Both the position numbers and the translations under genes were made by a program. Of a stretch of 64,000 bases of DNA, positions 43,803 through 47,739 are shown piece by piece. This DNA is from Escherichia coli (GTDB lineage: Bacteria; Pseudomonadota; Gammaproteobacteria; Enterobacterales; Enterobacteriaceae): assembly GCF_044324785.1 (NCBI RefSeq), contig NZ_CP172127.1, one strand, 5' to 3'. Under the pieces are notes generated by a model that worked only from the letters and a program-made list of their open reading frames with translations, made no database searches and was not told the DNA's origin. Position 1 is the first letter of the stretch. The number at the start of each line of letters is the position of its first letter.

Positions 43803-44600
43803 TTACTCTCTGGAAGCTTTTCTTATCTCTCTTGGTGTTATATTAAAACGATTATGAAATCTTTCAGTAAAACGAGAAGGACACTTATAACCATTTTCTC
43901 TGGCAATCTCGCTTATAGGTTTTACCGTCGTTTGTATAGCAGACAACGCATTATTTAACCTCACATCGTCCAGTATACTTTGGAAACTTACCCCCTCGCT
44001 TGCTAGACGGCGATGTAATGTAGAAACAGAAATGTAGAGATATCGAGCAACCTTGTTTGCTGTCCATTTTGTGCCGGGTTCGGATAGCAGCAGGTTATAA
44101 CAACGACTTATCAATGATTGTTTACTATATGATAAAAGTAAATGATTAACATGATTCACTCCTAACGAAAGTAGAACGCCCATTGCTAAGTGCTCCTGAA
44201 TTTTAGTTGAGAAGCCTCGGGAAACAGATGTTTTTAGTTGCTCCCAACAATATATTAACTCAGGATTCTGAGGTAAAAAGAAACTTGTTTTGTTACGTAT
44301 TTGATCAGTTACCGTATAAAGTTTTTGGAAACTCTCAATTAAATCAATGGGTAAGTAAAGCATTTCTGCAAGATAAAGCCCTGCTTCAGGATAATTCTCA
44401 ATATAAAATTCATAACCACAAGGAAATAATATTATTTGATTATTATCAACAGTTAAAGTATGCGTCTCCCAATTGATAACTTTCTTTCCCTGACGGATAC
44501 GACACAAAGCTGGCATAAGAGGCTTAACCCTATGAATCTCATGATGTTTATGCATCCGTATTTCTTCGATCTTTAAGTTAGTCTTACCTCTTGCCAGCAT
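43803..44600 (-). CDS. ybcM: AraC-family transcriptional regulator YbcM
   Basis: 265-aa ORF with C-terminal AraC HTH; matches recalled DLP12 YbcM. Confidence 0.8.
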
Positions 44601-44609
44601 ACTCTCACC

Positions 44610-45161
44610 CTACTTTATCTCATAAACTGGTGTTATCTCAGCGGTTGCGATTTTATTAGCATTAAGCATATAACCAACTAACGCTCCGCTGGAGTTAGAA
44701 TCTACAGGAATCTTTTCAGTTTTTAGAGCCCATACTTTAAACTGGTAATGATGTGGTTTATCTCCTTTAGGAGGACATGCGCCACCAAACCCAGCATAGC
44801 CAAAATCATTTCGGCCTTGAACAGCACCAGTCGGCAGTTTTGTTCCATCACGTCTCCCTGCATCAACGGGCAAATATGTTACTGTTGCTGGAATATTAAC
44901 AACAGTCCAATGCCACCAACCACTGCCTGTAGGTGCATCTGGATCATATACAGTTACGGCAAAGCTTTTGGTACCTTCAGGAACACCAGACCAGGTTAAT
45001 GAGGGCGATGTATTACCACCTTCACACCCAAATCCAGAAAAGACATGAGACGTTGTAAGTTGCTCTCCTGTTTTTATTTCATTACTAGTGACCTGAAATG
45101 CCGCAGCCTGCGCAGAAAATGTTATGAATGCCAATACAGTTGAAACGATAAGTGTTTTCAT
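44610..45161 (-). CDS. ybcL: Periplasmic PEBP/Raf-kinase-inhibitor-like protein YbcL
   Basis: 183-aa ORF with signal peptide; matches recalled YbcL. Confidence 0.8.
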   Translation of the reverse strand: MKTLIVSTVLAFITFSAQAAAFQVTSNEIKTGEQLTTSHVFSGFGCEGGNTSPSLTWSGVPEGTKSFAVTVYDPDAPTGSGWWHWTVVNIPATVTYLPVDAGRRDGTKLPTGAVQGRNDFGYAGFGGACPPKGDKPHHYQFKVWALKTEKIPVDSNSSGALVGYMLNANKIATAEITPVYEIK

Positions 45162-45625
45162 AAAAACCTCTTTGTTATGACCTATCGTTATTTTATTTGA
45201 TATTCCTTTATCTCATTATGCATAAAGGCGCAATGTTCATGCAAAAGCAATCACAATTGTACCCCCAACCCAATTATTTGCCACAATATACACAAAGCAC
45301 ATTGATACTATCTAAAAACTCTGCTTTATTATTAGTAATACCTACGAAAGTCGGTGTTATTTTTTAACCTACCATTCAAAATACGTGACATACACCATTT
45401 TGCTCATAATAATTTGTCACGTATTTTCAGTATTTGAATCTGCGACCAAGAGTTCTCACCTAACAAATGATTAAGATTGTATAGCTCATTTACTACCCCA
45501 ATACAGCCGTACAAAACTCGCTTGTGGGAGCAAACAAAGTAATTACCCATTAAGTTTCGTCAAAGATAATTAATTCTATCTTGCACTTTATCACCATAGC
45601 ATAACTTAAAATCCGAGATCATTAT

Positions 45626-47152
45626 TTAGAAATAAATCTCACCATCAACCATATATTTGAGAGCACTTATCGCCTGCTGGGCGGATATTACTTTCATTAA
45701 AGGATAGTGTTTAAAAACAATGCCATTCATAAAATAGATATCACAGGTTTTATTATCCGTATTAATTATGATTTTTTCGAATGTTTTATAGGCAAGTGTA
45801 CGGCATAACTCTCGTCCATTTTTACTGGTTAAGTCAATAGCATAAAAATCACTGAATGAATTTACACCTTTACTCTTCAAAGTTTTCAATGATACCGAAG
45901 CCCTTCGTAATTCCTTATCTAATAGTCTTATTTTCTCTGCTATAGCGGTAACTTCAGGCGCGACAGACAATGCAACGATTAAATTATTAATTTTCATCTG
46001 AAGCTCAATAATTTTTAACTCTAAAGTTTCATTAGCATCTTTCTTGTTTTCAACTGGTTGAATTTTGCTACAATTAAAAAGCAATTCATTAATGATATTA
46101 TAATCAACCAAATCTCTTTTTATTGATGGCCTGTCACATCGATGTAATCTTCTCATCGGACAAACATAATAGCCATGCAAACTTCCAGATACCGCATGAA
46201 CAATCATGGTATTACCACAAGCCTCACACTTCATAACTGTTCGAAGTAGATTTATTAGCATAGGATTCTTGCTACTATTGCTAATACCAAAAGGTGCCAA
46301 CCGAATTTCCTGTACAGCGTAAAACAAATCATCTGATATGACTCTGGGATAATAGCCAGCGATTTCACTTATCCCTTTCCCTCTTGCACGATATGAAGGT
46401 ACGCATATACCTATCAGAGCTTTATTCGCTAATAATTTTTCAATTACAGAAGGTCCCCATGCACTTTCTTTTCCTGAGAAATTCTTTACAGCATGATCAT
46501 TTAAATACTTGGCTATTGCATTCAATGAGCGCCTTTCCATCCTGAGTTTAAAAATTAGCTCAATAGTTTTCACCCTGTCGGGGTCTGGAACAAAAGCCGT
46601 TCTTTTGTCATCTAAGGAGAGCCATCTCGGACAAGACGCCGTCATAATCGTACCTGATTCCAGTGCATCCTGCCGTTTTTTCTTCCATGATAATTTAACC
46701 CGACTTGACTTTATCTCGCTTTCTTCATTTGCCCTTTGTGCTATAAGTATGGCTTTTATTAATGAATATGGCTCATTCAAAGAGTCAATATTATAGACTG
46801 TATTGTCGCAAAGAGTTATAACATCAATACCGTGATTCAAAATCAATTTCAGACGTTCAATCGCTTCACCGACTTTTTCTCTTGAAAGTCTGTCCAGACT
46901 TTCAACTAACAATGTAGTTCCTGGCAATATATAACCATGCTCTATAGCATCTAAAAATTCCGAAAAAGCTCCTGATTGTGCATGCTTTCCTTTGAATGCA
47001 CTTAATCCTAAATCTTCATATGTTATGGTATCAAGATAATAATCACTATTTACCTTTAACCATTCAGCAATAAGTCTTCTCTGTCGGTTTAATGAGTCAC
47101 CAGACATCTGACCTGGTGATGAAAATCGCATATATGCTATGGCTTTTTTCAT
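45626..47152 (-). CDS. ybcK: Large serine recombinase (YbcK-like)
   Basis: 508-aa ORF; N-terminal resolvase domain with catalytic Ser context (AIAYMRFSSPGQ), C-terminal Cys-rich zinc ribbon (CEACGN…CPMRRLHRCD). Confidence 0.8.
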   Translation of the reverse strand: MKKAIAYMRFSSPGQMSGDSLNRQRRLIAEWLKVNSDYYLDTITYEDLGLSAFKGKHAQSGAFSEFLDAIEHGYILPGTTLLVESLDRLSREKVGEAIERLKLILNHGIDVITLCDNTVYNIDSLNEPYSLIKAILIAQRANEESEIKSSRVKLSWKKKRQDALESGTIMTASCPRWLSLDDKRTAFVPDPDRVKTIELIFKLRMERRSLNAIAKYLNDHAVKNFSGKESAWGPSVIEKLLANKALIGICVPSYRARGKGISEIAGYYPRVISDDLFYAVQEIRLAPFGISNSSKNPMLINLLRTVMKCEACGNTMIVHAVSGSLHGYYVCPMRRLHRCDRPSIKRDLVDYNIINELLFNCSKIQPVENKKDANETLELKIIELQMKINNLIVALSVAPEVTAIAEKIRLLDKELRRASVSLKTLKSKGVNSFSDFYAIDLTSKNGRELCRTLAYKTFEKIIINTDNKTCDIYFMNGIVFKHYPLMKVISAQQAISALKYMVDGEIYF

Positions 47153-47406
47153 GGTGACACCTGCTAACGTATGCTTTTATAAACCTTAGTGGTGGGATAT
47201 AATTTTTGTTTAATTTTTATTTAAAAAGACAATTAAGGTCACATTATCTTGAATATACAACAATAATCGTATTGCAATTTTCTTACGCCATAATCTTGAA
47301 AGCACAAAAGAATACATAAAAAATAAAGATATTAACAAAAAGCATAAAACGAGGCTCATATAAATATAAGAGCCTCCATATTTTAGTCGTTTAGAAACAA
47401 ATTATT

Positions 47407-47739
47407 TTAATGTGGTGTGCTTCGTGACAATAAATTAATAACCAACACACCGGCACAAATCAACATCATGCCTATAATGGCTGGCAGGTCCAGCCGTTGG
47501 CCGAAAAATCCCCATGACAGTAAACTAATCAGGACAATACCGACTCCTGACCAGATAGCATAAGCAATCCCTGTAGGAATATAAGCCAGCGTCTGAGCTA
47601 ATAACCAGAATGATGCACAATAACAAATAATTGTACCAACAGATGGCCATAACCGTGTAAAACCTTCTGAAAACTTCATTAAGGTTGTACCAATGACCTC
47701 TGCAAGTATTGCACCACCAAGATAAATATAAGGGTTCAT
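47407..47739 (-). CDS. emrE: Small multidrug resistance efflux transporter EmrE
   Basis: ORF 47407..47793; from MNPYIYLGGAILAEVIGTTLMKFSEGF… 110 aa, four TM segments, matches EmrE. Confidence 0.85.
   Translation of the reverse strand: MNPYIYLGGAILAEVIGTTLMKFSEGFTRLWPSVGTIICYCASFWLLAQTLAYIPTGIAYAIWSGVGIVLISLLSWGFFGQRLDLPAIIGMMLICAGVLVINLLSRSTPH

Follow-up and report, generated by a model that had tools for sequence, protein, structure and literature searches.

The analysed window, a stretch of 64,000 nucleotides of Escherichia coli DNA, contains a cargo block that is recognisable from its gene content as the accessory ("moron") block carried by a DLP12-type lambdoid prophage integrated at argU. 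From the ren side to the ylcH/ybcN side, the minus strand carries emrE, ylcJ, ybcK, ybcL and ybcM in this order, and the downstream flank (41721-43686) comprises ylcH, ybcN, ninE, ybcO, rusA, ylcG and Q. The features discussed below are the following:

43133-43588, minus strand: ybcN/ninB-like gene (RefSeq and K-12 annotation; NF007281, 277 bits)
43585-43686, minus strand: ylcH, the first nin-region gene past the cargo (RefSeq and K-12 annotation)
43711-43771, minus strand: left border of the variable cargo slot, a promoter-like element upstream of ylcH-ybcN, 80-90% conserved in all cassette classes
43772-45616, minus strand: variable cargo slot, holding here the ybcLM cassette and most of the ybcK trailer
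43803-44600, minus strand: ybcM
44610-45161, minus strand: ybcL
45162-45316, minus strand: ybcLM promoter/regulatory region, common to loci lacking ybcK; homology to locus L183 starts at 45316
45317-45625, minus strand: ybcK 3' trailer, with remote conservation of its first ~75 nt across all ybcK variants
45317-47399, minus strand: ybcK unit (ylcJ, ybcK and the 309-bp 3' trailer), 2,083 bp with a GC content of 34%, absent from the ybcK-less emrE-ybcLM arrangement
45626-47152, minus strand: ybcK, predicted large serine recombinase of 508 aa
47210-47359, minus strand: ylcJ, gene for a 49-aa small protein (RefSeq and K-12 annotation)
47407-47739, minus strand: emrE
47755-47789, no strand assigned: inverted repeat between ren and emrE, with 13-nt arms and a 9-nt spacer, from the repeat scan
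47807-48109, minus strand: ren, the last conserved gene ahead of the cargo (RefSeq "protein ren" at the matching position in locus L001)

The first-pass annotation had reported emrE, ybcK, ybcL and ybcM as four minus-strand ORFs, in a region ending at 47739, the ATG of emrE. Positions and gene identifications were both confirmed, the latter by profile matches and by identity to K-12. The interval 47153-47406, which had been described as intergenic, was found to hold ylcJ, which had been missed. Also borne out was the claim that the prophage has a tyrosine integrase besides the serine recombinase: IntD, identical to the K-12 protein at 384 of 387 residues, is encoded at 56328-57491, adjoining a tRNA-Arg(UCU) gene at 57507-57583. 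The cargo is markedly poorer in GC than its flanks (36% vs 51%), and a mosaic junction with phage PhiR30_1 is located at 47843. The DNA of the block is 99.9% identical to that of many E. coli chromosomes, in which RefSeq names the same genes, and it shares 99.76% identity with K-12 DLP12 over 4,218 bp; YbcK, YbcL and YbcM are each 100% identical to the MG1655 protein. The block is a familiar accessory segment of DLP12-type lambda-like prophages in E. coli and hence ordinary: it represents already-known biology and adds nothing new on the four genes themselves. No PADLOC defence model matched YbcM, YbcL, YbcK, EmrE, YlcJ or a 48-aa ORF.

EmrE is a textbook small multidrug transporter, and the emrE product of the block (110 aa) can be assigned as an SMR proton-coupled multidrug efflux pump. 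The NCBIfam EmrE model matches residues 1-110 with 240.6 bits against a cut-off of 226, the membrane-embedded Glu14 is present, as seen in MNPYIYLGGAILAEV, and only one substitution, I100V, distinguishes the protein from that of K-12. The gene occurs in 3,692 of the 5,426 complete E. coli genomes. YlcJ has been listed among new small proteins (PMC6001520). Its protein-level constraint is doubtful, as dN/dS reaches 2.4 in comparison with the phage 4A7 allele.

YbcL is a proposed urinary-tract virulence factor. The protein encoded here matches NF007330 with 400.3 bits against a cut-off of 277, and its sequence identifies it as a periplasmic PEBP/Raf-kinase-inhibitor-like protein, in the K-12 allele. 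If the signal peptide comprises 21 residues, V99 of the precursor is V78 of the mature protein, and V78T (mature numbering) is the reported single change separating the UPEC variant from K-12 (Lau et al. 2012). According to a review, laboratory and commensal YbcL alleles do not suppress neutrophil migration, owing to a single residue change. The protein, identical to the K-12 allele and with valine at precursor position 99, is not the UPEC variant that suppresses neutrophils, and the neutrophil effect that had been brought up for YbcL loses weight, as the K-12 allele is reported to be inactive. YbcM matches PHROG 6899 over its full length, and its residues ~150-263 match models of HilD, QhpR and AraC (E 1e-18 to 1e-11), an AraC-type C-terminal domain that marks the product as an AraC-family regulator with a C-terminal HTH. 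Promoter-like sites are predicted ahead of ybcLM at 45314-45285 and 45284-45256. In K-12, YbcM binds upstream of ybcLM in ChIP-exo and aids survival in H2O2 (PMC8464067).

YbcK has the features of a complete large serine recombinase of the integrase type, under purifying selection. Its Pfam domains are Resolvase (4-161, E 2e-18), Recombinase (PF07508, 191-284) and Zn_ribbon_recom (PF13408, 302-357). The catalytic context consists of YMRFSS (R9, S11, Q15) and SLDRLSR (D87, R88, R91), and in a family alignment of 20 sequences these six residues were invariant, as were the zinc-ribbon cysteines C309, C312, C331 and C339. A missing catalytic serine context had been named as grounds for giving up the recombinase claim; since the residues are present and invariant, the claim is not refuted on this ground. 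The family profile matches the A118 integrase (4KIS, 1.9e-16), in an alignment that extends across the zinc ribbon and the coiled-coil region, and SprA of SPbeta (9DXH, 4e-15). Between alleles, dN/dS is 0.08 (dS 0.127; 12 non-synonymous vs 38 synonymous changes). The gene is present in 1,423 of the 5,426 complete E. coli genomes (26%), in full length in 1,397 of them (98%), and full-length orthologues with invariant catalytic residues are found across Enterobacterales. In K-12, the ybcK leader contains a Rho-dependent terminator (PMC4150792); in BL21(DE3), sabinene tolerance was raised by ybcK overexpression and lowered by its deletion (PMC7181518).

The ybcK unit behaves as a discrete indel. 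In the alignment with locus L183, window positions 47815-47400 correspond to 6424-6841 and positions 45316-43586 to 6846-8576, leaving only 4 bp in L183 between the two matches that flank the position of the unit, which fixes both ends of the indel to within a few bp. The arrangement emrE-ybcL-ybcM without ybcK occurs in ~2,628 of the 5,426 complete genomes (about 48%); in strain 5283, 168 bp separate emrE from ybcL, within a prophage relic beside fliE. Both ends of the indel fall inside the two AT-rich spacers. This agrees, circumstantially, with the earlier suggestion that these spacers have a part in recombination. The 3' trailer contains a hairpin at 45378-45427 with a perfect 13-bp stem (z = -3.1 vs shuffles), and the ybcLM-type trailer sequence was present in a single copy per genome in 674 genomes, with no other occurrence found in E. 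coli. The recombination breakpoint that joins ybcK alleles to differing trailers maps inside the final ~12 nt of the ORF.

Among E. coli prophages with ybcK, emrE-ylcJ-ybcK is constant, and what varies is the segment between the ybcK stop codon and the promoter of the nin operon. Across 75 loci, the same two junctions enclose at least seven alternative contents: ybcLM (26 loci), an esterase (11), ORFs of 107 and 169 aa (10), 107 and 118 aa (8) or 107 and 260 aa, the last HNH-like (7), a 107-aa ORF with BstA (3) and ORFs of 90 and 105 aa (2), along with a deleted form (6) and IS2 insertions (2). BstA, an abortive infection protein, was recognised by PADLOC at 3.8e-121. Most of the non-ybcLM cassettes have a nested segment of 280-430 bp in common. 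The left border of the slot contains a TTGATT..AATCAA palindrome (43753-43770), a GC hairpin (43711-43737) and a promoter-like match (43770-43742); at the slot border, the phage 82 record X92588 is annotated with putative -35/-10 signals and a "possible regulator-binding site". A comparison of the cassette classes yielded no repeated attachment-type site, only conserved flanks and nested segments being common to them. An integron-like or SCC-like cassette system was considered and is not supported, as the repeated attachment sequences expected to flank its cassettes were not found.

Searches were also made for YbcK sites and for products of recombination. Neither the ybcK unit nor the cargo as a whole was found to be bordered by a target-site duplication, a terminal inverted repeat or a common sequence, and the best nominal p value in 12 Smith-Waterman border comparisons (0.02) was not significant after correction. 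Around ybcK and the module borders, inverted and direct repeats were not above chance, the best distant pair being of 24-25 nt with 72-79% complementarity. The sites of large serine recombinases have only 2 bp in common, and attachment sites are therefore not excludable by a sequence search. All 80 related loci are collinear, none showing an inverted arrangement. Among the 5,426 complete E. coli assemblies, which represent the majority genotype only, no recent precise-excision junction of the ybcK unit was detected: junction-spanning matches were all 80-90% identical, and matches at 95% or above were all half matches. We found no sign that the ybcK region is an invertible switch. The inversion that had been suggested for YbcK is not supported by the repeat search or by the collinear loci.

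Taken as a whole, the region is probably a composite accessory block in which ybcK forms a self-contained recombinase unit that would move as one piece, and not an invertible switch. The genes of the block are all co-oriented with cro-cII-O-P-ren and with nin/Q, which would place it within the rightward delayed-early transcription unit; judging from gene order, transcription from the early rightward promoter would have to cross the block to reach Q. In the lysogen, each unit would be expected to use its own signals. Three separately exchangeable units may be distinguished, namely emrE, the 2,083-bp ybcK unit and the ybcL-ybcM operon, the last of which fills the slot that holds other cargo, including bstA, in sister phages. 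The ybcK unit may have entered the emrE-ybcL spacer, or be able to leave it, as one piece. Its recombination sites, if any survive, would then be expected close to 47399 and 45317, where the unit meets its surroundings, or where the ybcK ORF ends.

Ordinary recombination between related phages, whether homologous or illegitimate, could account for all of the mosaic junctions without YbcK. In another reading, YbcK is a second phage integrase, with an adjacent attP, probably in the 3' trailer, directing insertion into a second chromosomal site. The closest solved relatives are indeed phage integrases, and relatives of 40-60% identity are often the outermost prophage gene beside host DNA, as in Yersinia, Atlantibacter (540 bp from the ssrA 3' end), Erwinia, Ewingella, Enterobacter and Pantoea. 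In Edaphovirga, two 97%-identical copies have a common sharp boundary 135 bp upstream, and one of them abuts yggS. However, the inspected E. coli copies all occupy the same intra-prophage position, in prophages that have their own tyrosine integrases at differing sites (argU and next to ybhC), and the ybcLM-type trailer lacks a second copy anywhere in E. coli. For cluster10915, which contains a YbcK relative, attB and attP with a 26-bp common core have been predicted (Durrant et al. 2022). This attB lies downstream of yebY, where a tyrosine integrase and an excisionase adjoin in the one E. coli strain inspected; because of the long common core, the sites point to the tyrosine integrase and not to the serine enzyme, which counts against a second integrase. 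We regard this role as unlikely.

Two further readings are decidedly unlikely. In the first, ybcK is a functionless hitch-hiking remnant, bound to decay. The failure to find target sites or products and the silencing of K-12 ybcK by Rho-dependent termination would agree with this, but the dN/dS of 0.08, the full length of 98% of copies and the catalytic residues invariant across Enterobacterales orthologues do not. In the second, to which we give the same small chance, the 2,083-bp ylcJ-ybcK unit would be a mobile element in its own right, free of repeats, that uses the large serine recombinase it encodes to enter AT-rich spacers of prophages and islands; its crossover site would overlap the end of the ORF and would also seed the adjacent variable slot. 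If true, this would make the unit a minimal transposon based on a large serine recombinase, a type so far undescribed in Enterobacterales.

It is very unlikely that YbcK captures and exchanges the slot cassettes at its 3' end, as integron integrases and the SCC-borne Ccr recombinases do. At least seven cargoes start only a few nt from the ybcK stop and finish at one common border, and all variants show remote conservation over the ~75 nt past this stop. Nevertheless, the cassettes are not surrounded by any repeated attachment-type sequence, and the borders are the nin-operon promoter/hairpin and the end of a conserved ORF, which are expected as breakpoints of homologous exchange between mosaic phages and thus argue against exchange by YbcK. 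The nested segment in most non-ybcLM cassettes is as serial homologous exchange predicts, and one phage, PhiR30_1, has the same left border yet no ybcK. Co-option of YbcK for a cellular role other than moving DNA, such as stress tolerance, is highly improbable: the sabinene phenotype in BL21(DE3) (PMC7181518) stands alone as an overexpression phenotype and lacks a mechanism, and the conservation of the full recombinase catalytic apparatus indicates DNA recombination as the selected activity.

The reading of YbcK as the invertase of a phase-variable switch, flipping a promoter or gene segment in the cargo region, is scarcely credible and largely refuted. A serine recombinase does lie between long AT-rich spacers, but invertases of the Hin/Gin/Pin type have ~190 aa and a C-terminal HTH and act on a segment between inverted repeats, whereas YbcK is an integrase-type protein of 508 aa, above-chance inverted repeats are absent and 80 of 80 related loci are collinear. 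The small serine invertases PinQ and PinR of K-12 cryptic prophages do invert DNA (PMC12529663); against a switch here, the ybcLM-type trailer occurs once per genome in 674 genomes, a figure that counts copies and does not cover orientation relative to ybcK.

As phage cargo, EmrE and YbcL are found in two arrangements, both old: one includes ybcK (26% of complete E. coli genomes), the other lacks it (about 48%). K-12 itself carries YbcK, a recombinase that is intact and maintained by selection. Concrete DNA substrates for an excision/integration test are provided by the indel borders and by the breakpoint at the end of the ORF.

With regard to known systems, YbcK has the three-domain architecture and catalytic serine of the A118/LI integrase (4KIS) and of SprA (9DXH). 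In contrast to these enzymes, which have defined attP/attB sites and are the sole integrase beside attP, YbcK coexists with a tyrosine integrase, and its candidate borders lack recognisable sites. TnpX of Tn4451 and TndX of Tn5397 are large serine recombinases that move a discrete segment with a 2-bp crossover and no long repeats. This pattern would fit the repeat-free 2,083-bp indel, whereas circular forms, conserved end motifs and multiple insertion sites were not seen for the ybcK unit in E. coli genome assemblies. The slot also resembles moron and defence hotspots, such as the BstA locus of Salmonella and E. coli prophages, in that unrelated cargoes alternate at one fixed position. It differs from them in that ybcLM and emrE match no defence model and in that the slot adjoins a recombinase gene. 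The nearest counterpart in a laboratory strain is K-12 DLP12 (b0543-b0546), which has the same genes in the same order, with renD upstream and ylcH-ybcN-ninE-ybcO-rusA-ylcG-quuD downstream. While DLP12 is deleted and IS-interrupted, the prophage of the window looks complete, with O, P, cI and cro and with head, tail and lysis genes that match PhiR34_1. This phage matches the window over most of 22381-57508. PhiR34_1, PhiR68_2 and PhiR70_1 differ from the window in two further cargo slots, downstream of Q (38635-41738) and beside cI (51435-52329), and PhiR30_1 is without emrE and ybcK. In the plaque-forming lambda-like phages PhiR34_1, PhiR68_2 and PhiR70_1, the whole 4.3-kb block is present at 99.8-99.9% identity.

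The block between ren and ylcH/ybcN in this DLP12-type prophage was found to be arranged as follows, together with the integrase gene and the tRNA gene at the prophage's site, argU:

47807-48109: ren, flanking the block on the emrE side
47407-47739, minus strand: emrE, scoring above the curated NCBIfam cut-off
47210-47359: ylcJ, an annotated small gene between ybcK and emrE
45626-47152, minus strand: ybcK, a large serine recombinase with Resolvase, Recombinase and zinc-ribbon domains
44610-45161, minus strand: ybcL, scoring above the curated NCBIfam cut-off
43803-44600, minus strand: ybcM, with an AraC-type C-terminal domain
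56328-57491: IntD tyrosine integrase, 384/387 residues identical to K-12 IntD
57507-57583: tRNA-Arg(UCU)

The four cargo genes that the first-pass annotation had placed at 43803-47739 are present as open reading frames, and the family assignments of EmrE, YbcL, YbcM and YbcK are firm. The gene order is ren, the block, ylcH/ybcN, ninE, ybcO, rusA, ylcG and Q, in a single orientation throughout, and the GC content of the cargo is 36%, compared with 51% in the flanking phage genes. Zero matches were obtained between the cargo proteins and the PADLOC defence models. The neighbours of ylcJ, ybcK and emrE, are strongly constrained, while ylcJ itself shows a dN/dS of 2.4 (9 non-synonymous vs 1 synonymous change, window vs phage 4A7 allele); it is thus doubtful that ylcJ encodes a selected protein, unless it is one that evolves fast.

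As the prophage possesses IntD beside tRNA-Arg(UCU), at argU, the serine recombinase is indeed an addition to a tyrosine integrase, as had been proposed. In an alignment of the family (29-61% identity), the catalytic serine context is preserved, S11 and its partner residues R9, Q15, D87, R88 and R91 being invariant, as are the four zinc-ribbon cysteines. YbcK is intact and under selection because these residues are invariant, because its family profile matches SPbeta SprA and the integrases of A118 and TP901-1, because the dN/dS between the window and 4A7 alleles is 0.08, and because the gene is full length in 1,397 of its 1,423 genomic copies. BLASTP between YbcK and gamma-delta resolvase gave no match, and neither did phmmer against the PDB. 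The mechanism of YbcK is one that we infer.

The ybcK gene is far less frequent than the genes surrounding it: emrE was found in 3,692 and ybcLM in 3,257 of the 5,426 complete E. coli genomes, ybcK in only 1,423. A ybcK-less arrangement occurs in approximately 2,628 of these genomes, and was inspected at one locus, in strain 5283, where the gap between emrE and ybcL is 168 bp. This locus is a short prophage relic adjoining fliE and running from the 3' end of ren to ylcH; this 2.2-kb lambdoid nin-region relic (L183 6424-8576; ren 3' end, emrE, ybcL, ybcM, ylcH) is flanked by fliE and an IS200-type transposase. Window segments 47815-47400 and 45316-43586 map to either side of 4 bp in strain 5283, which identifies the stretch between them as an indel:

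45317-47399: ybcK unit, 2,083 bp, consisting of ylcJ, ybcK and a 309-bp trailer

The predicted deletion junction of this unit would join window position 47400 to 45316, with ...CATTAAAATAATT on one side and TTTAGATAGTATC... on the other. Neither a target duplication nor terminal inverted repeats were observed at the indel junctions between the window and strain 5283. The AT-rich spacers, which had been suggested to hold the recombinase target site, do contain the two ends of the indel, and no repeats above chance were found at its borders. The 155 bp upstream of ybcL (45162-45316) are common to the window and the ybcK-less form; we read this stretch as the ybcLM regulatory region, which fits the published K-12 YbcM ChIP-exo site.

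On its 3' side, ybcK borders a variable slot, which extends from its stop codon to the promoter of the nin operon. In comparison with phages 4A7 and Turner, sequence identity extends from ren through ybcK, gives way to unrelated sequence and picks up again at 43771, just ahead of ylcH. The contents of this slot were surveyed in 75 loci, drawn from 80 IMG/VR loci plus reference phages:

Contents of the slot adjacent to ybcK
ybcLM: 26 loci
esterase, on the opposite strand: 11 loci
107-aa antirepressor-C-like ORF and 169-aa protein: 10 loci
107-aa ORF and 118-aa protein: 8 loci
107-aa ORF and 260-aa HNH-like protein: 7 loci
107-aa ORF and BstA: 3 loci
90-aa and 105-aa pair: 2 loci
deleted form: 6 loci
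with IS2 insertions: 2 loci

BstA in the alternative cassette was recognized by PADLOC (3.8e-121) and also by PHROG 6287. The common right-hand border of the slot (43711-43771) consists of a promoter-like element and a hairpin, which are also marked in the annotation of phage 82, and phage PhiR30_1 has the same border without emrE and ybcK. On the left-hand side, ybcK alleles 98-100% identical to that of the window change to another trailer inside the ORF's final ~12 nt, and the first ~75 nt past the ORF show only remote similarity between trailer types.

The first-pass annotation had proposed that YbcK could mediate an inversion or a secondary site-specific recombination. Inversion finds no support: a search for inverted and direct repeats, including Smith-Waterman comparisons with shuffled controls, returned nothing above chance around ybcK or at any other module border, and the 80 related loci are all collinear, with no inverted arrangement among them. 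The ybcLM-type trailer is present in a single copy per carrying genome and absent elsewhere, no second copy of the ybcK 3' trailer being found in E. coli genomes. With regard to recent excision, a synthetic precise junction matched only old ybcK-less loci (80-90% identity) in the 5,426 genomes, all matches of at least 95% identity being half matches. The only local structured element near ybcK is a 13-bp perfect hairpin in the trailer (45378-45427; z = -3.1). With neither an inversion nor a recent excision product visible, the genomic comparisons argue against current activity of YbcK on nearby sites.

Full-length YbcK orthologues (40-61% identity) are spread across Enterobacterales. Relatives lie outermost at the tail-fibre end of prophages, adjoining host DNA, in Yersinia, Atlantibacter, Erwinia, Ewingella, Enterobacter and Pantoea, and likewise in a Pluralibacter-like locus (L177), while others occupy the nin region of further lambdoid prophages (Pantoea dispersa, Atlantibacter sp. 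RC6) or island edges, or lie in a relaxase-bearing element. For one relative, cluster10915, attB and attP with a common 26-bp core have been predicted (Durrant et al. 2022). This attB is a conserved site downstream of yebY. Inspection of one E. coli strain showed a tyrosine integrase and an excisionase next to it, which suggests that a tyrosine integrase carries out the integration there. The terminal position of the relatives is thereby weakened as an integrase signature, and the YbcK family thus seems to serve as an accessory recombinase in temperate elements equipped with a tyrosine integrase of their own.

In Edaphovirga cremea, two 97%-identical YbcK-like recombinase copies (9866-10449 in both L108 and L110) stay alike up to a sharp boundary, 135 bp ahead of the start codon, past which the left flanks are unrelated (host gene yggS in one, a P4-type integrase island beside mutS in the other); this suggests a recently mobile element headed by the recombinase, its right end being unassembled. 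The position of the recombinase relative to neighbouring genes is not fixed: a conserved pair of small genes (~80 aa and ~107-130 aa) lies upstream of it in most terminal-type prophages and downstream in Erwinia rhapontici (L172 11207-11772 vs L173 8212-8845 and L178 8325-8890), and a UmuC-like polymerase gene stands in the equivalent position in Enterobacter and Pantoea. Two P22-like prophages, one from Pantoea sp. RIT-PI-b and one from Enterobacter ludwigii, have a 3.8-kb block in common at 88% identity (L099 8062-11887 vs L100 8063-11884). It comprises a UmuC-like gene, a small ORF and the YbcK-like recombinase, together with 366 bp downstream of the last; neither the tailspike and O-antigen modification genes that flank it on one side nor the host DNA that follows at its opposite end are related between the two. 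No motif shared in the 3' and 5' flanks was found across YbcK subclades. Gene-sized mobility, considered for divergent pairs in which homology stops exactly at the recombinase ORF (L010/L103, L008/L094), was rejected because neutral flanks would in any case be unalignable at 76-83% coding identity.

As for the cargo functions, EmrE is an SMR pump. The window YbcL is the K-12 allele; at precursor residue 99, the polymorphic position, it has V and strain 5283 has A. The UPEC ybcL allele probably resides in the ybcK-less arrangement. The suggested modulation of neutrophil migration is weakened for this prophage, as the UPEC allele is reported to suppress migration and the lab and commensal alleles are reported not to, owing to one residue (PMC4810123). 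In K-12, a Rho-dependent terminator in the ybcK leader precedes the gene (PMC4150792). Overexpression of ybcK confers sabinene tolerance, for which no mechanism was given (PMC7181518). YbcM binds upstream of ybcLM and helps in H2O2 survival (PMC8464067), and a meeting report ties it to the motility-to-biofilm switch (PMC9966839).

Most of 22381-57508 in the window prophage has a match in PhiR34_1. Approximately 0.9 kb beside the cI repressor gene (51435-52329) have no match in PhiR34_1 and encode 87-aa and 147-aa proteins (PHROGs 4231 and 3556), neither with a convincing match among defence models. Since rexAB occupies this position beside cI in lambda, a superinfection-exclusion role is possible by analogy. 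Downstream of Q, DLP12 and PhiR34_1 have a porin gene (nmpC/ompC) in a slot that in the window (38635-41738) is filled by other cargo:

41041-41565: Blc lipocalin lipoprotein
39889-40848: DUF1722/YbgA-like protein, 319 aa
38808-39197: AraC-family C-terminal fragment, 129 aa

The region of the block is already known. Many E. coli chromosomes match it over 4.3 kb at 99.9% identity, with the same RefSeq gene names, and the plaque-forming phages PhiR34_1, PhiR68_2 and PhiR70_1 carry the same block. Against DLP12 of K-12 MG1655, identity reaches 99.76% across 4,218 bp, and the YbcK, YbcL and YbcM proteins are identical. To this, the present analysis adds the modular anatomy, the 2,083-bp ybcK indel, the BstA-capable slot and the evidence on YbcK integrity.
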